DNA from: a phage
Sequence record: PQ374922.1
Direction: 5' to 3' (one strand)
Length of the DNA: 64,000 nt
Numbering within the stretch: the first letter of the stretch is position 1; each line of letters begins with the position of its first letter. The position numbers and the translations under genes were made by a program. The notes below the pieces were generated by a model, which was given only the letters and a program-made list of their open reading frames with translations, was not told where the DNA came from and did no database searches. Shown here one piece after another: positions 4,861 through 59,773 of the stretch.

Positions 4861-5906
4861 TGGAAATCAAAGCAATTAACAACAATGACATGTTGAAGCA
4901 GGCTGTCTTGGCTATCCGTGAATTCGGGATCGAATCTGATCCTGGTAATGCTGAAATCAATACTGATAGCACCCGCTTCCTTGATGGTGTGACTATCACT
5001 GTTTCCGATATTCGTGACCGCTGGCTCTCCGTTGAAGGTCGCAACTCATCGGCTATCGCTGCCATCGGCGAGACCTTCTGGGTGTTGTCAGGTCGCAACG
5101 ACATAAAGTTCCTGTCACGCGTATTGCCTCGCGCTGCTAACTTTTCGGATGATGGGGTAACATGGCGAGCTGCTTATGGTCCGCGTCTGTACGCCCATGG
5201 CCAGCTGGATAGCGTTATCAACCGCCTGCGCAAGAACCCAAACACTCGCCAGGCGTACCTCACTATTTATGATCCGGCTTTGGATTCGGATGCTGGTCTG
5301 GCGAAGTTCAGCGAGAGCGGCGAAGCGAAGACCAAGGACATGGTGTGTAACCTGGCTCTGTTGTTCGCCATCGTTGAAGGTCGTCTGAACCTGACGGTCA
5401 TCAATCGCTCACAGGATGTTCTGTGGGGGATGAGTTCAATAAACTTCATTGAGTTCTCTATTCTTCAGGAAGTGATTGCTCGGGTGCTGGACGTTGACGT
5501 CGGTCAGTACAAGCTATTCTCTAATAATCTTCATTACTACAACAATGAAGTCAGCCAGAAGCAGCTGGGAAAGATCACGAAGGACACCAAAGTAGAAGCT
5601 GGGTTCATCAACTCCATGATTCACTTCACGAACGTGACCAACCAGAACCATATCCGCAATCTGTTCACTGGTGTGCTTCATCACTGTGATATCGGCAGCC
5701 CGTGGGAAACTGTGGTCGCCCACCTGAAGGAATATGATGCTGATCGTGGCCTGATTGTACAGATGGCGTACTGTCTGCACTGCAAACTGAACGAAAAGCT
5801 CATTAACCTGGACCTGATTCAGGATCATGGCTTGAACACCGCGCTCACGCATTCCCCGGTTGACCGCAAGATCATTGATCCTAAGTTCCTGGAAGGTGTA
5901 GTATGA
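4860..5906 (+). CDS. Thymidylate-synthase-fold pyrimidine C5 hydroxymethylase-like enzyme (gp42-like, divergent)
   Basis: TS-fold motifs: ETFWVLSGRNDIKFL (cf. ELLWFIKGSTNAKEL), RQAYLTIYDP, candidate catalytic Cys163 in DMVCNL, then 20 residues to RSQD as in TS (R166/D169). The canonical PCH and PFNIAS motifs are not conserved and there is a roughly 100-aa C-terminal extension. Confidence 0.7.
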   Translation: MEIKAINNNDMLKQAVLAIREFGIESDPGNAEINTDSTRFLDGVTITVSDIRDRWLSVEGRNSSAIAAIGETFWVLSGRNDIKFLSRVLPRAANFSDDGVTWRAAYGPRLYAHGQLDSVINRLRKNPNTRQAYLTIYDPALDSDAGLAKFSESGEAKTKDMVCNLALLFAIVEGRLNLTVINRSQDVLWGMSSINFIEFSILQEVIARVLDVDVGQYKLFSNNLHYYNNEVSQKQLGKITKDTKVEAGFINSMIHFTNVTNQNHIRNLFTGVLHHCDIGSPWETVVAHLKEYDADRGLIVQMAYCLHCKLNEKLINLDLIQDHGLNTALTHSPVDRKIIDPKFLEGVV

Positions 5907-6472
5907 TGTATCCAAATCTTGAATTCTTTACGGGGCGCAAGCGCTCCGGTAAGGACTTCTGTTTGGAGTCCCTGATCAGTTATCACCACTTACAGGGTGA
6001 TATGGACATCCAGCGCCTTTCGTTCTCGGATGAACTGCGCCGTGTGGCCAACTACATCTACCCATGGCTCCCAGCGGAGGTAGAGGATGCCGTGAAGGAC
6101 GTTCCTTACGTGCACCCTGATAACCCCAAGGGTTTAACTCCACGGCAGATCTGGCTTCATCTAGGCAGCGATACGGGCTTGCGTTACGTACAACCCGATC
6201 TGTTCCTGGCATTCTTCAAGCGCTTCCAGCTTCCTCTGGTAGAGCAGAACCCCCACGTTCATTATATCGTGAGCGATCTGCGTACCCCTCAGGAATATGA
6301 ATGGGCGCTGAGTACGAAATGTCCTATCACCCGTATTTCAAAGGCCGACCGTGCTGGTATCATAGAGGACGATATAGAGGCTTTCATTGACCAAATGAAA
6401 GTGGACTACGAATTCCTCAATCCATTTGATGGTTGGGAACCGTTCGTTAAATTCTACGGAGAACGTAAATGA
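5903..6472 (+). CDS. 1: Deoxynucleoside monophosphate kinase (T4 gp1-like)
   Basis: FFTGRKRSGKDF (cf. T4 gp1 FLSGVKRSGKDT) and HYIVSDLRTPQE (cf. YYIVPDTRQDHE); ATGA overlap with the upstream gene. Confidence 0.8.
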   Translation: MMYPNLEFFTGRKRSGKDFCLESLISYHHLQGDMDIQRLSFSDELRRVANYIYPWLPAEVEDAVKDVPYVHPDNPKGLTPRQIWLHLGSDTGLRYVQPDLFLAFFKRFQLPLVEQNPHVHYIVSDLRTPQEYEWALSTKCPITRISKADRAGIIEDDIEAFIDQMKVDYEFLNPFDGWEPFVKFYGERK

Positions 6473-7023
6473 TCACAGCAGGGCATATCAAAAGCCTGCT
6501 CGAACTCCAAAAGGCCACTAACGTGGCCTACTTTGGGGAAGAGTGGAAGAATGTATGGAGTCAGAACGCAGTCATCAACTCTATCTATCGTGAGTGGGCA
6601 GAGTTCCTTGATGAAACCACCCGTGACTGGAAGGTTTATGGCAACGACATCGGGTTTGATCATACGAACGCAGTTTATGAACTGGTGGACGTGGTACACT
6701 TCATGTTGTGCTTCATCCTTGTGGACCGCACCAAAGGTGAGATCGAAGAAGAATTTGAAGTCCTTAGTAATCGCGAATTCACCCCATCTGCTTTGGGTGT
6801 TGTAGGGCATCGCAATGTTACGTACCGCCTTGGGCAATTCATGAACGATCCTTGCGTTGAGACTCTCATGTTCTTCCTGTCGTCTGCGTGTTCTTATATG
6901 GAGATCGACATTGAGACTTACATACTGGCACACAAACGCAAGAACGATCGCAATCGCCTGCGTGCTGCTGGTGGCGCGGATTACGATAAGTCCGCAGAAA
7001 CCCCTCTGACCCTGGAGTTCTAA
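6469..7023 (+). CDS. All-alpha NTP pyrophosphatase (dCTPase/dUTPase gp56-like or MazG-like)
   Basis: Acidic helical pattern EWAEFLDETTRDW...YELVDVVHF typical of all-alpha NTP-PPases; ATGA overlap with gp1. Confidence 0.5.
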   Translation: MITAGHIKSLLELQKATNVAYFGEEWKNVWSQNAVINSIYREWAEFLDETTRDWKVYGNDIGFDHTNAVYELVDVVHFMLCFILVDRTKGEIEEEFEVLSNREFTPSALGVVGHRNVTYRLGQFMNDPCVETLMFFLSSACSYMEIDIETYILAHKRKNDRNRLRAAGGADYDKSAETPLTLEF

Positions 7024-55535: not shown

Positions 55536-56192
55536 TTACTTCTTGAACAGACGAAGGAACTTCATCATGTTTTCCATGAAAGTCGGCTTCTTGACCTTTT
55601 GTTTTACCGGAGCGCCCTGATCATTCAGAACACGACTGGCCGGAGGAGTAGGCGGTGTCGGCGCTTTCGTTTCACAGGCTGGAACGATGTTCACGTCATG
55701 ATGAGAAGACTCAGATGTAGTGTTAACAACATTGTTCTCCTGGACGACAGGCTTGACGAGATTCTTTTCGTACTCACGCGCCATGGCCTGATACATCAGA
55801 TTCAAATCCACCAGATCAACAGACTTGACCTTGCGACGACGCCAATTGGCGCTTTCTTCGCCATAGAAATCATATCCGTTTCTGATCAGCCAGTGTACGG
55901 CTTGTTCAAACGAACCGAAGACCATAAGTGGAGCGCCCTGGCCTTTCTCAGATTGTTCCAGGCTACCATAACCCATCAACACAACCTGGTCTTTGATACT
56001 CAAATCAAACGTCATACCAAGGTTCGGGATGTTTTTATCGCGGCGGAAGAACCCGCCATCACGGTAGACGTAAACAGGCGACAGGAACTCATTCAGAGTA
56101 CGCTTGACACCCTTGTATCGGAAGAGTCTGACAATTGGAGGGGTGTCATGGGAAATCACTTCGTTCAATTCCCAGATAGAAACATTACGCAT
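55536..56192 (-). CDS. Hypothetical protein (218 aa) with Pro/Thr-rich linker
   Basis: ORF; PTPPTPPAS linker near the C-terminus. Confidence 0.5.
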   Translation of the reverse strand: MRNVSIWELNEVISHDTPPIVRLFRYKGVKRTLNEFLSPVYVYRDGGFFRRDKNIPNLGMTFDLSIKDQVVLMGYGSLEQSEKGQGAPLMVFGSFEQAVHWLIRNGYDFYGEESANWRRRKVKSVDLVDLNLMYQAMAREYEKNLVKPVVQENNVVNTTSESSHHDVNIVPACETKAPTPPTPPASRVLNDQGAPVKQKVKKPTFMENMMKFLRLFKK

Positions 56193-56320
56193 CGGTGTAT
56201 CCTCAAATCTATGACAGGGGGGGGTTAACGGTTAAATTTTAAACCCCCTTTGTATCATTGAACAAACTACGATAAAGGAGGACATGCTTGGGTCGATAAG
56301 AAGATAATAAGACAGGGATA

Positions 56321-56347
56321 AAAAGAAAGCCGGATAGGATATCCGGC
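56321..56347 (-). terminator. Rho-independent terminator for the minus-strand tRNA-region transcript
   Basis: gccggata-gga-tatccggc hairpin followed on the minus strand by a T-run. Confidence 0.45.
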
Positions 56348-56564
56348 TATACCACATCGATGGGATGGGTTGAAAGACTACACGCTTGCACTGGTACTAC
56401 CCTATGGGAGAGCGCGTCAGGAGTCGAACCTGAAGTCGTCGACGTAGAGAAAGCTATTTGCATTTCACTATCCTCGCCGCGATTTTCTTAACTTCCTAAA
56501 CACCCGATTACGAGAGAGTCGACATGCACATCTTCTAACTCTTCAGGAAGTCACGCCCGTAATT

Positions 56565-56653
56565 TGGCGGAAGGTGAAGGATTCGAACCTTCGGGGGCTA
56601 AAAGCCCCACTCGATTAGCAGTCGAGTCCCTTAAACCTCTCGGGCAACCTTCC
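56565..56653 (-). tRNA. tRNA-Ser (anticodon GCU)
   Basis: Cloverleaf folded by eye: acceptor GGAAGGT/ACCTTCC, D-arm CCC/GGG, anticodon stem CTCGA/TCGAG with loop CTGCTAA, long variable arm GGGGCTTTTAGCCCC, T-arm GAAGG-TTCGAAT-CCTTC, encoded CCA. Confidence 0.85.
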
Positions 56654-56906
56654 AATTTGGACGGGCTTCACACCCGATTGAGCATTTGATCTGCCGTAGC
56701 CCAACTCCCCGCGCTTCTCAGCGCCGATTGGTTAACTGGCGACCAGTGCCTTCTGGTTCAATCTCCTGGAACTTTACAGGCTTTGCGCCCGACCATTTCT
56801 GGAAGTTGGGGCATCGTTTCCGATGCGGAGTCATCCCCATTTTATACACAGCTGGCTGCAACGCTTACTGTGTTTGTCGGAGTGTCATGTTTCACACCCC
56901 TTAACA

Positions 56907-56983
56907 TGGTGATCCTGATTGGGTTTGAACCAATGACCAATGAATTATGAGTTCACTGCTCTAACCGACTGAGCTACAGGACC
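56907..56983 (-). tRNA. tRNA-Met (anticodon CAU; elongator Met or Ile-lysidine type)
   Basis: Cloverleaf: acceptor GGTCCTG/CAGGATC, D-arm GCTC-AGTCGGTTA-GAGC, anticodon loop CTCATAA, T-arm ATTGG-TTCAAAC-CCAAT, encoded CCA. Confidence 0.85.
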
Positions 56984-59203
56984 AAATTATTGTGTACCAA
57001 CCAAGGACTGTCAACCCTTTATCCCGTTTGTGCATGATCAGTTCATGCATGCCTGTTTGTGCGCCTCACGGCATGCGCTTCTGTGGGTCTTTGGCTTGCA
57101 CCATAGCCTCGCCACAGGCGTTTATTTTTCCAGGGCTTTCCACTTACAAGTCTTAACCAGACCGGGATACGGGCTTGTAAGATCGGGTTGGACACAACTT
57201 TGATAGCTCTGGTACTAAAGATCCCGCGTCACCCATAGACATGGTTTATAAAATCCAGAGCCATCAAAGTTGCAACCAAATGTTACAACTCGCAGCTTCT
57301 ATGTAGAAGCAACTTGTCCTCTAACGCTCGGACCAAACGAGGCTGGCTGGTTGATTCAGAGCCGCTGGTTGCTCCAGCAAGCATGGGTTGATAGCCCGGC
57401 AACATAGAATCACCCAAAGATGAAGAACATTCATGACTCACATCACACCACGAATGGCCTGAAAGAGAATCGAACTCTTTAATGCTCTTCATTTTGTGAA
57501 CTTGAGAATACTACGCCTGTCTCGGGTTTCCCCTTAGTTCGGCCTCCCAGTCCTCGCCGCGCCGGGTAGCTAACCCTGATGGCTCGTCTGCTACTGAGTT
57601 CTTCTTGGTGCCCACCAGTGTCCGGAATGTGTAGGCATCGCAATCTGCAAGGCATGGTCTATTTCACCCAATGCTCTCTCAAGTTCACAAATCGAAGTGC
57701 CCTGACTCAACAGTATGGCCCAATATGCTGTTATCGTCCACCGGATTGGCCGCCCAATTTGTAGATCAACCTTTGGGTTTAAGATAAATTGCCAAGGCAC
57801 TTCGATTTGTGTGCCCTTCACCTGCCAGGGATCAGGGCTGATGGCAAGACTTCGCTCACATCTTTCAAGATACTCGTGAGAATATCCTCAAAGATGTGGT
57901 GCCGTTTTAGGGAGTCGAACCCAAATGTTCGGCCAGCGTTGACCTTACATCCCATCTGACTTAGGCAACCCACCTCTGCTTACTCAGGAGATTATCCCCT
58001 TTGGACAGTCAGATGTAACGGCATTTTATTTAACAATTCATTCAACTGATAACTTCAGGGGACCACTCTCATCTCCCCACATTTCGACCGCCCGGGACGG
58101 TTTAGTGGTACGTCACTTGGTCTGTTACACGGTAGGAGCCGATTCTCCCTCGAATTACCTCTTGTTCGTATGCCTACAAACAATTTCACAGATTGCTGAC
58201 AAGTTATCATGTGAATGAATTGTCATTGTATGCCCTGACTTATTAATCACATCTCAGGGCCGCGATGCGCCAGATTCTGTTACAGGGAACTGGAATACCC
58301 CGCTGACTTATAGGCTATTACGCCGCCATCAGAACTTCGGAATCATTAGCATTTATTTGCTTGGTCAGTTTCTAAAAACCCGCAAAGTCACGCACAACGA
58401 AAACCTGTTTGAGTCCTAAACGTACCTGTCTTAGTTCACAACGCTATGAGTGACCAGGACTCAAACAGCTTGCCGTTCAGTGGGTTAACTATACTTTGTA
58501 ACCCGTTATTGATAAAACCTTTTATTTTGTTGGCGAGGGTGCCACCATCGTTTTGCCGGAACTTACGCATCCGGCCTCGCCTGTTGGTGCTCCTTCGAAT
58601 CCGGGAAGATCAGCAGGAACTATGAATCAAGTTAATTCTACCAACAGGAGCCTGTGTTGCCCTTTGACGCAACATTATGAACCCTCTACGAAGACTCATA
58701 ATGTTGTCGGCGTGATGGAACCTGGCAGATCCGTCCTCCCCTATATGTTGGTGTCGACTCGCCAACGGGGCGCTCTCAAGCATCTGAGCTAATCACGCTA
58801 CAACAGGGGGTTTCGTTCTCCGACGGTCAGTGCGTCCACCGACACCAGCGAGGTTGATATTACGCCTCTATTCGTCACGGTGCCCTGAGACTGGGCTTTC
58901 CTGGTTTCGGGTTCCAGCCCTACTACCACCGCGCTATTCGCCTCGTGTTTAATACTTTACTACAGCCCAGCTAATTTGAAAAATCCTCTCCTCTTTGAGC
59001 TACACTGCCCACAGCAGTGCGGACGAACCTTCACTCAAAACCGGATGCGCCGAAGTGGGCGTCTGTTTACCAGACTGATCGGGTAGACCCAGGAGAGTAA
59101 AGGTAATCCCGATCAGGAGGATGAGGAGTAACATCATGTAAAACATAGTGTTCCCTCCCTTCCATGCAACTAACTTTACTGCAATTCTTTATTGAATAAA
59201 GCG

Positions 59204-59773
59204 TTATTTTAACACTTCTAACTTCACAATACGACGCAGAAGGTAAACATATTCGCCAGCAGCTTCATGCGTCATATAATGGGTAGAAGGTGTGGAATGA
59301 GTGTTCTGGGTTTCTTTTAATCCAACACGTTCTGCCCAACCATTAATAGAGTTCCCATAGAAACCGATAATCGCACCAAAATAAATGCGCCCGCTTTCTG
59401 GCTCTAAAACATAGTTGACAGTGAAGCAAATGTCAGAACGAATAGACTCCAGTTTCATACCAACACGACCTTCAGAGAATTCGTTACGAACATATAAATG
59501 ACGGAAGCGATCGCGCCGTGCTTGTGATGATTCTTCCAATTCTTGTCGAAGTGAAGAAGTTATGTCAATATTAAATGAAAATGTTGGATTTCGTAAATCA
59601 GAACGGGCCAACTCTAACGCAGATTCAATAACGCGACGGAAATTGATACTTTTACCTGTCAGGCGTTTCACTTCATCGGTGATTGTTTCAAAAGGGACTT
59701 TCGTGGCGCGTTCCCCTTCGTATTTTGCTAACAAAGGAACAATGTGTTTCATGATTGCTGTGTTAATGTGCAT
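59204..59773 (-). CDS. Hypothetical protein (189 aa)
   Basis: ATG start; no motif recognised. Confidence 0.5.
   Translation of the reverse strand: MHINTAIMKHIVPLLAKYEGERATKVPFETITDEVKRLTGKSINFRRVIESALELARSDLRNPTFSFNIDITSSLRQELEESSQARRDRFRHLYVRNEFSEGRVGMKLESIRSDICFTVNYVLEPESGRIYFGAIIGFYGNSINGWAERVGLKETQNTHSTPSTHYMTHEAAGEYVYLLRRIVKLEVLK

Follow-up and report, generated by a model that had tools for sequence, protein, structure and literature searches.

A candidate tag-template RNA with predicted complementarity to host tmRNA, within a conserved RNA island of an Ackermannviridae phage

What is encoded by 3 kb of a densely packed phage genome that has almost no room for protein genes? The question is raised by positions 56,200 to 59,203 of sequence record PQ374922.1, of which 64,000 nucleotides (nt), referred to here as the window, were analysed. 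An earlier, sequence-only reading had described this stretch as nearly devoid of credible open reading frames (ORFs), which is borne out. No ORF inside 56200–59203 exceeds 79 amino acids (aa), and 56229–59203 (2,975 nt) is the longest part of the window without an ORF of at least 100 aa, about five times the runner-up of 553 nt. Such ORFs cover 1% of the region and 87.6% of the whole window. The results described below show that 56229–59203 is a conserved island of RNA genes, and neither decayed nor overlooked coding sequence. One of these genes specifies an RNA, termed here the tag-template RNA, which judging from its sequence clearly belongs to a widespread, unannotated RNA family of Enterobacterales phages and prophages derived from the mRNA-like domain of transfer-messenger RNA (tmRNA).

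A BLAST comparison of this gene desert with 50,697 phage records reveals that about 170 nt (58226–58404 of the window) are also present in unannotated gaps of unrelated phages. The carriers include Drexlerviridae (Cronobacter phage ESP2949-1), Skatevirus (KFS-SE2), Schitoviridae (SP154 and Pollock), Chaseviridae (EcoM1 and phiEcoM-GJ1), Nonanavirus (PJ16), and Ounavirinae (Michonne, within a tRNA array). The permuted, alpha and beta tmRNA models of Rfam give a same-strand, sub-threshold match at every locus tested, carried by the linker and the tag; the scores are 24–30 bits against a gathering score of 47 for RF04321, 14.5–24 against 50 for RF01849, and 15.5–23.5 against 84 for RF01850. A hidden Markov model (HMM) of the family matches nt 80–128 of ssrA, the authentic tmRNA gene of E. 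coli. The element in the window comprises the following parts, with lengths of helices given in base pairs (bp).

58232–58405, minus strand: tag-template RNA, homologue of the tmRNA mRNA-like domain, complete core of 174 nt (sequence, coding and covariation evidence)
58405–58468, minus strand: 13-bp hairpin directly upstream of the antisense arm (read from the sequence)
58373–58405, minus strand: 5′ antisense arm, complementary to host tmRNA (predicted duplex; no conserved intramolecular structure predicted)
58315–58350, minus strand: resume codon GCU, ten-codon tag ANDSEVLMAA, and stops UAA UAG (translation, codon-position test, invariant U-5/A-4 upstream)
58303–58332, minus strand: helix-5-like hairpin, stop codons located in the loop (covariation of the outer stem, AU 21 and GC 18)
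58270–58302, minus strand: pseudoknot A (stem 1 98% paired, stem 2 100% paired; 7 of 9 pairs with double-sided changes)
58232–58269, minus strand: pseudoknot B (stem 1 99.6% paired; one pair occurs as C:G 25, U:A 12 and G:C 8 times)

The core in the window reads GAUAAAU GCU AAU GAU UCC GAA GUU CUG AUG GCG GCG UAA UAG and translates to ANDSEVLMAA; the tag of E. coli tmRNA is ANDENYALAA. The context of the resume codon is GAUAAAU followed by GC(A/U), and U-5 and A-4 are invariant in all 45 members of a curated, non-redundant alignment. The corresponding nucleotides of E. coli tmRNA, U85 and A86, set the reading frame (PMC2481249). There are 34 tag variants (ANDDVVLMAA, ANDEQFLAVA, ANEEMYLAVA and ANDNVFLAVA, for example), nearly all of which consist of ten codons followed by a stop. 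Synonymous changes account for 27% of the codon differences in the tag frame vs 2.4% and 6.6% in the other frames. The flanking Ala, Asn and Asp codons are invariant at positions 1 and 2 and variable at position 3, with all four bases used in the last Ala codon. Substitution patterns of this kind show, at the level of the alignment, that the tag reading frame is under coding selection.

The family was found in ~470 of the 50,697 phage records, representing at least seven phage lineages as well as lambdoid prophages. It is carried by 137 of 5,426 complete E. coli genomes and annotated in none of them; the copy of E. coli 55989 belongs to a lambdoid prophage, where it separates antiterminator Q from the holin and points in the direction of the late genes. 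A pattern scan of IMG/VR returned at least 120 matches. HMM-confirmed members among species-representative genomes are all from Enterobacterales (Pantoea, Rouxiella, Pseudocitrobacter, Erwinia and Rosenbergiella), and 42 of the 48 matches of the pattern scan of these genomes were discarded as chance occurrences in AT-rich genomes. Six Bacillales genomes (Lysinibacillus and Ureibacillus; L147, L159, L163, L164, L165 and L167) fit the pattern with similar spacing and are negative with the family HMM; this is probably an unrelated conserved locus. We also note that a free-standing HNH homing-endonuclease gene is located just upstream of the tag-template RNA in Salmonella phage SP1 (L186 776–1246) and in Se-G. 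The insertion sits at a duplicated GGTTTTCG box and the element is intact, with the tag ANDNTFLAVA in SP1. A group I intron or a disrupted gene was thus rejected as the reason for the split BLAST matches seen in Kuttervirus.

The secondary structure was assessed on the same 45 members by an all-against-all covariation scan and a formal count of pairs. Overall, 94.6% of the cells are paired, vs 31–44% when the 3′ partners are slid, and double-sided changes are found at 14 of 21 pairs (136 cells); none of 500 shuffles reaches the observed values. Pseudoknot A is composed of a 5-bp stem and a 4-bp stem between the loop and downstream nucleotides, the latter covarying at all four pairs. Stem 2 of pseudoknot B occurs in 15 distinct complementary variants around the invariant loop UGAUUAAUAA (58240–58249). 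RNAalifold independently recovers two stems and leaves the 50 nt at the 5′ end unpaired. A pseudoknot-1-like fold of this 5′ region was considered and rejected, as it gained support neither from the all-pairs scan nor from RNAalifold. The sequence-only reading had listed an undescribed structured RNA among its suggestions, and the strongly covarying RNA at 58405–58232 is one; the tmRNA origin was absent from that reading.

The 5′ arm, 95.6% invariant, leads to the host. The family HMM matches the reverse strand of E. coli ssrA at nt 65–102, beside the tag match, and the arm is antisense to host tmRNA nt ~60–106, a target that spans the 3′ strand of pseudoknot 1 (PK1), the resume codon and codons 2–5 of the tag. 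In the arm of the window, GGUUUUCGUUGU is predicted to pair with ssrA 94–105 (tag codons 2–6), GUGACU with 86–91 (-4 to +2 around the resume codon G90), UUGCGG with 75–80 (PK1 3′ strand), and UUUUUA with 68–73. With 34 bp and -39.9 kcal/mol, the duplex of the window is the strongest of the nine that were detailed. Divergent subfamilies have different sequences and the same ssrA target: EcoM1 would form one contiguous 13-bp helix on ssrA 81–93, and the predicted helices are 11+12 bp in L017, 12+4+8 bp in L051, 9+4+7+7 bp in L053 and 10+3+3+7 bp in Michonne.

Mononucleotide shuffles and reversed-sequence arms served as controls for the duplex predictions. The optimal duplex falls on ssrA 54–109 in 36 of the 45 members. 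The median energy is -43 kcal/mol vs -30 for shuffled and -29 for reversed arms, with a median z of -4.1 and usually no shuffle out of 100 as good. The end of the duplex lies at ssrA 100–110 in 42 of 45 members, compared with 2% of 300 shuffles. The complementarity could in principle be a by-product of pairing with the tag region of the phage itself; this was rejected because the host resume region is preferred over the phage's own equivalent in 44 of 45 members (-22.1 vs -12.0 kcal/mol). These calculations show the 5′ arm to be a conserved tract, predicted to be unstructured, with significant and target-specific complementarity to host tmRNA.

Host ssrA hardly varies in the target blocks, judging from 120 sequences taken from ssrA-adjacent prophage contigs of IMG/VR. 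The main host polymorphism, A6 vs A7 in the A-run, concerns exactly the segment that is looped out by the main-family arm. A single, anecdotal case of matching was seen: with the CUUUUAA of L027/L044, the helix would again be perfect against the host variant A69U. Variant host tags are present in Enterobacterales-type tmRNAs on IMG/VR prophage contigs (L219, L202, L190 and L205), namely ANDSQYESAALA, ANDNQYKALAA, ANDEQYAIAA and ANDEKYELAA. The phages of hosts with variant tmRNA tags would be the best place to look for co-varying antisense arms.

The tag-template RNA is not a tmRNA by the defining feature of that family, because a canonical tRNA-like domain is missing. None of 126 members was called as a tmRNA by ARAGORN at default settings, and a T-arm scan from -450 to +900 nt found no T-arm in SP154, ESP2949-1 or PJ16. 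The 92-nt tRNA-like domain of the permuted model corresponds to 21 nt in the window, closed by a hairpin, and the 13-bp hairpin at 58405–58468 aligns to the P2-like helix of the same model. Regarding the ends of the transcript, a TTGACA-17-TAGATT/TATAGT promoter is found in 27 of 95 unique members vs 1.3% at random positions, and it puts the predicted transcription start in these members at the first conserved nucleotides, those of the antisense arm. An intrinsic terminator is located ~235 nt past the resume codon in SP154, and ESP2949-1 runs into an ORF.

How could such an RNA act? We favour, with a rough probability of 0.45–0.5 and hence tentatively, the possibility that the tag-template RNA docks on host tmRNA and acts as a replacement template for the tag, so that a two-piece tmRNA would be assembled from two genomes. 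Annealing of the free 5′ arm to host tmRNA, at the PK1 3′ strand and the single-stranded resume region, would bury host A86 together with the resume codon. It is known that tmRNA becomes inactive when a helix surrounds its resume codon, and the pseudoknots, including PK1, are replaceable (PMC2481249). Given the polarity of the duplex, the ~22-nt phage linker and the phage resume codon would come to lie beside what is left of host PK1, at the normal starting point of the host linker. In such a complex, SmpB binding and the alanyl-tRNA-like domain would come from the host tmRNA, and the template with its helix-5-like hairpin and pseudoknots from the phage RNA. The products of stalled ribosomes would then receive the phage-encoded tag instead of ANDENYALAA. 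As to origin, the similarity is closer to permuted tmRNAs, linker included, which suggests descent from a naturally separate coding piece that gained a docking arm for enterobacterial tmRNA.

Several points weigh against docking. In 9 of the 45 members, all divergent, the duplex energy is no better than that of shuffles and the landing site alone is consistent. Host and phage could be matched by genome in two pairs, both of which have the standard ssrA target. We know of no precedent for lateral ribosome loading of a template supplied in trans. The phage tags begin, as before, with AND/ANE and finish with the hydrophobic residues L(A/M)(A/V)A; they are still degron-like, and the gain from swapping the tag is therefore unclear. 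Part of the codon-like pattern could come from the pairing constraints of helix 5. Three lambdoid copies close into a 389-nt tmRNA when ARAGORN is relaxed (-ps95), and at that setting only, without G3:U70; given these copies, some members may be self-sufficient. Regarding novelty, literature searches that included strings of the element's sequence and its tag peptides found no earlier description, a result that does not extend to the 79 phage sequences listed in a 2025 tmRNA database.

Compared with known systems, the tag-template RNA has both common and distinct features. It shares with one-piece tmRNA (SsrA, RF00023) the GCN resume codon after U-5/A-4, a ten-codon tag of the AND...AA type, tandem stops in the helix 5 loop, pseudoknots downstream, and the similarity to ssrA nt 80–128. 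In contrast to one-piece tmRNA, it is devoid of a tRNA-like domain, an acceptor/CCA end and helix 2, and possesses two pseudoknots rather than four (of which three usually follow the tag) in 174 rather than ~363 nt. It is also missed by ARAGORN, scores below Rfam gathering values, and has an arm antisense to tmRNA itself. Two-piece permuted tmRNAs of Alpha- and Betaproteobacteria and cyanobacteria (RF04321, RF01849 and RF01850), in which a separate coding RNA is base-paired to an acceptor piece, offer the best Rfam similarity, including the linker CAA..AUAAAUGCAAACGA. Their pieces, however, originate from the precursor of one gene and pair via acceptor and P2 helices, whereas the proposed partner of the phage RNA is a complete one-piece tmRNA of the host, paired at PK1, the resume codon and the tag start.

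AgvB and AsxR are prophage anti-sRNAs, or sponge RNAs, of pathogenic E. coli that sequester Hfq-dependent regulatory small RNAs (sRNAs). The likeness lies in a phage RNA that base-pairs with a host non-coding RNA; the tag-template RNA differs in its target, tmRNA, and in that it would bring a replacement functional module. Phage T4 has stable non-tRNA RNAs, species 1 and 2, beside its tRNA cluster, and these resemble the arrangement in the window by co-location. The partial tmRNA of mycobacteriophage DS6A is, in the account that PMC4131195 gives with reference to Mao et al. 2009, phage-encoded and thought to disturb host trans-translation. By that account it is a mirror image, the tRNA-like domain being kept and the tag template lost, the reverse of the phage tag RNA. 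Complete tmRNAs are carried by mycobacteriophages of cluster C, Bacillus phage G, Streptomyces BE phages, and the OM43 phage Melnitz (PMC4131195, PMC9004378). These are likewise phage-borne trans-translation RNAs, often near tRNA genes; they differ in being full molecules that ARAGORN detects. In the literature on phage tmRNAs surveyed (PMC4131195, PMC9004378), no complete phage tmRNA is reported for Enterobacterales phages, and, apart from DS6A with its isolated tRNA-like domain, the phage tmRNAs known from these accounts are complete.

Should docking be true, it would constitute a new viral takeover of translation quality control and the first natural tmRNA that draws its two functional halves from different genomes; if it is confirmed, a swap of tags through such docking would be new in kind. 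The choice by the ribosome of a tag template supplied in trans would become testable, and a short-RNA design for programmable tagging of the products of stalled ribosomes is suggested. Mechanism aside, this is a new, widespread structured RNA family that annotation has left blank or overlaid with spurious small ORFs.

The rival possibilities depend in part on the tRNA-shaped units that adjoin the element, which in the window are the following.

57899–58023, minus strand: T3, a 125-nt tRNA-shaped RNA with an encoded N-CCA 3′ end (RNAalifold; 88–98% conserved in seven Ackermannviridae loci)
58024–58231, minus strand: 208-nt insert, common only to the window and Taipeivirus Magnus (96–100%; conservation map)
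~58530–58545, minus strand: remnant of a 67-nt minimal tRNA-like unit (~52 nt deleted in the window and Agtrevirus)

T3 is predicted to fold into an acceptor stem of 6 bp, a T-arm, a long extended arm, and a hairpin in the variable arm that shows compensatory changes. In Kuttervirus, T3 lies 6 nt after the tag-template RNA. The Magnus counterpart of the insert coincides with a weak tRNA-like call of relaxed ARAGORN (L003 5150–5247, with a coordinate offset). The 67-nt unit is intact in Kuttervirus SeKF_19 (L004 3946–4012), where acceptor stem, D-arm and T-arm are present and an anticodon arm is absent; it is annotated as tRNA-Ala and has U3:G70. The alanine identity pair G3:U70 is found in none of the neighbouring tRNA-like units examined. 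In lambdoid and siphophage copies (L131, the E. coli 55989 prophage, 5808–6599; L005, L009, L013, L014 and others), a recurring 16-bp hairpin module, ACAACAGGUAAGAGCA...UGCUCUUAUCGUUGUGG, brackets the tag-template RNA, and downstream there is often a tRNA-like unit that contains a large insertion and whose acceptor stem is GUUGUGG/CCACAAC. The hairpin modules and the GUUGUGG unit may be processing sites or alternative pairings. A universal tRNA-like partner was rejected, since T-arm scans and relaxed ARAGORN yield heterogeneous, lineage-specific neighbours.

The antisense complementarity and its host specificity would also be expected of a pure inhibitor, an RNA that masks the host resume region with its 5′ arm and thereby shuts down or titrates trans-translation. 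The part that resembles a tag would then be untranslated, either an evolutionary relic or a scaffold or decoy for S1 or SmpB. The loss of tmRNA activity caused by a helix around the resume codon (PMC2481249) speaks for such inhibition, and DS6A, whose partial tmRNA of the tRNA-like domain only is thought in the account of PMC4131195 to interfere with host tmRNA, would be a precedent. What inhibition leaves unexplained are the fixed length of ten codons, the in-frame stop in nearly all variants, the synonymous excess, the invariant U-5/A-4 before the phage's own resume codon, and two pseudoknots kept by covariation. We regard pure inhibition as rather unlikely, though it is the foremost competitor of docking. 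A different possibility is a self-contained phage tmRNA, in one or two pieces, in which the tag RNA is joined by a phage acceptor partner and host tmRNA plays no part; the partner might be a cryptic tRNA-like domain, T3 with its CCA end, the 67-nt unit of Kuttervirus, or the GUUGUGG/CCACAAC unit of lambdoid prophages. TRNA-shaped units with encoded CCA do adjoin the element in Ackermannviridae and lambdoid prophages, the three lambdoid copies can be closed by ARAGORN as described above, and the best Rfam similarity is to permuted, two-piece tmRNAs. No partner, however, is common across lineages: SP154, ESP2949-1 and PJ16 are without a nearby T-arm, the Kuttervirus unit is deleted in the window, and G3:U70 is absent from all of the tRNA-like units. 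Self-sufficiency also leaves the host-directed antisense arm unexplained, and it is considered improbable.

Still less credible, and given little weight here, is the view that the stretch is for the most part a tRNA array in decay, interspersed with processing spacers and micro-ORFs that have escaped recognition, in which the tmRNA-like piece is a captured fragment without function in this phage. Relatives do hold additional intact tRNAs in the region (Tyr, Asn, Trp, Arg and Gln), a tRNA-like unit has visibly suffered a deletion in the window, a 58-aa frame at 57479–57655 is open in Kuttervirus, and a 48-aa ORF at 59000–59146 is conserved. Nevertheless, the stretch is more conserved than the flanking genes, the element in the window is intact and has the strongest host duplex of the nine detailed, and covariation maintains it in unrelated phage families. 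Docking on host tmRNA remains the reading that we prefer.

The window belongs to Ackermannviridae (Aglimvirinae), and the region is 99.3% identical to Escherichia phage YX22. Conservation was mapped in 50-nt bins over eight loci from Agtrevirus, Kuttervirus, Taipeivirus and Limestonevirus. Identity across genera is 85–100% in most bins of the non-coding stretch, and just 54–78% to the more distant genera in the flanking coding sequences 55536–56192 and 59204–59773. An island of RNA genes explains why conservation in this 2–3 kb gene desert is among the highest in Ackermannviridae genomes. The conservation is mosaic: 57350–58300 is 98–100% identical to Taipeivirus Magnus, and 59000–59150 is 66% identical to Magnus and 100% to Kuttervirus. 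RNA modules have evidently been exchanged recently between genera. The minus strand of the region folds with a mean minimum free energy (MFE) z of -1.5, vs -0.3 to +0.05 in coding controls.

Public records disagree on the region, leaving it blank or placing small ORFs on either strand. When 35 ORFs of at least 30 aa were compared by tblastn over eight genera, most gained stops or lost coverage, and protein genes hidden in the desert were rejected, the following ORF alone being clearly maintained.

59000–59146, minus strand: small ORF of 48 aa with a hydrophobic N-terminal half (intact in all genera with 56–94% amino-acid identity; annotated in several records)

This ORF is probably, as its conservation and composition indicate, a genuine small membrane-protein gene at the edge of the desert. 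The 58-aa frame on the minus strand at 57479–57655 is open in Agtrevirus, Taipeivirus Magnus and three Kuttervirus loci, with 59–60% amino-acid identity in Kuttervirus, and could be a real micro-protein or due to chance.

The remainder of the island contains two conventional tRNAs and further structured features.

56986–57014, minus strand: sigma-70-type promoter of the tRNA operon (TTGACA, 17-nt spacer, AATAAT; 11 of 12 matches)
56907–56983, minus strand: tRNA-Met(CAU) (ARAGORN and Rfam, 70.6 bits)
56654–56906, minus strand: conserved spacer of 253 nt from tRNA-Ser to tRNA-Met (82–100% identity in four to seven of eight loci; ORFs in the spacer not maintained)
56565–56653, minus strand: tRNA-Ser(GCU) (ARAGORN and Rfam, 56 bits)
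56407–56558, minus strand: T1, a tRNA-like unit with a 73-nt insertion replacing the anticodon loop (relaxed intron-aware ARAGORN only)
56328–56348, minus strand: intrinsic terminator of the tRNA operon (9-bp stem, then a T-run)
57177–57286, strand unassigned: long hairpin with a stem of ~18 bp (MFE z of about -7 and weak miRNA-precursor-type Rfam matches on both strands)

With a promoter directly upstream of tRNA-Met and a terminator after T1, tRNA-Met, the spacer, tRNA-Ser and T1 constitute one short operon. Both tRNAs and the minus-strand terminator at the left edge had been recognised from the sequence alone; ARAGORN and Rfam agree on the former, and the latter is placed at 56348–56328. 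These tRNAs are also all that passes at default and gathering settings, so that the scan proposed with that reading confirmed them and brought out no further RNA. T1 possesses a 7-bp acceptor stem, a D-arm and a T-arm. Its acceptor stem covaries across genera (C4:G69 to U4:A69, and U6.G67 to C6:G67), and its insertion is 15–23 nt in relatives, the Kuttervirus homologue being annotated tRNA-OTHER. T1 also holds a conserved GUGAAAUGCAAAUAGC that resembles the context of a resume codon. Both T1 and T3 have an acceptor stem and a T-arm, with large insertions or an extended arm where the anticodon arm is expected; at default settings ARAGORN calls neither, and neither matches a tRNA model of Rfam at E up to 10.

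Three T-arm-like motifs that had been reported not to close into cloverleaves are present at 56420, 57467 and 57910. That description fits the hairpin at 57463–57479, around which no convincing cloverleaf closes; the other two lie within the covarying, tRNA-shaped T1 and T3. Covariation across related phages, the comparison that had been recommended, is seen in the T1 acceptor stem, the T3 variable arm and the tag-template RNA, and the broader suggestions of stable non-tRNA RNAs and of degenerate or insertion-bearing tRNAs hold in their general form. The repeats that had been pointed out are present as well (cacccgatt at 56501 and 56671; tcctcgccgcg at 56471 and 57551) and carry no weight as a signal, because ~17 and ~1 such pairs of 9 and 11 nt are expected by chance in 3 kb. 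Permissive Rfam matches to miRNA, snoRNA and plastid untranslated-region models were set aside as hairpin or tRNA-antisense artefacts. The hairpin tgcatga/tcatgca, likewise noticed earlier, is found at 57031–57049. The long hairpin at 57177–57286 is situated in the most conserved block, 56990–57450 (82–100% in all eight loci, Limestonevirus included), and segments 57137–57185 and 57337–57417 also match Klebsiella phages KP13-26 and FBKp27.

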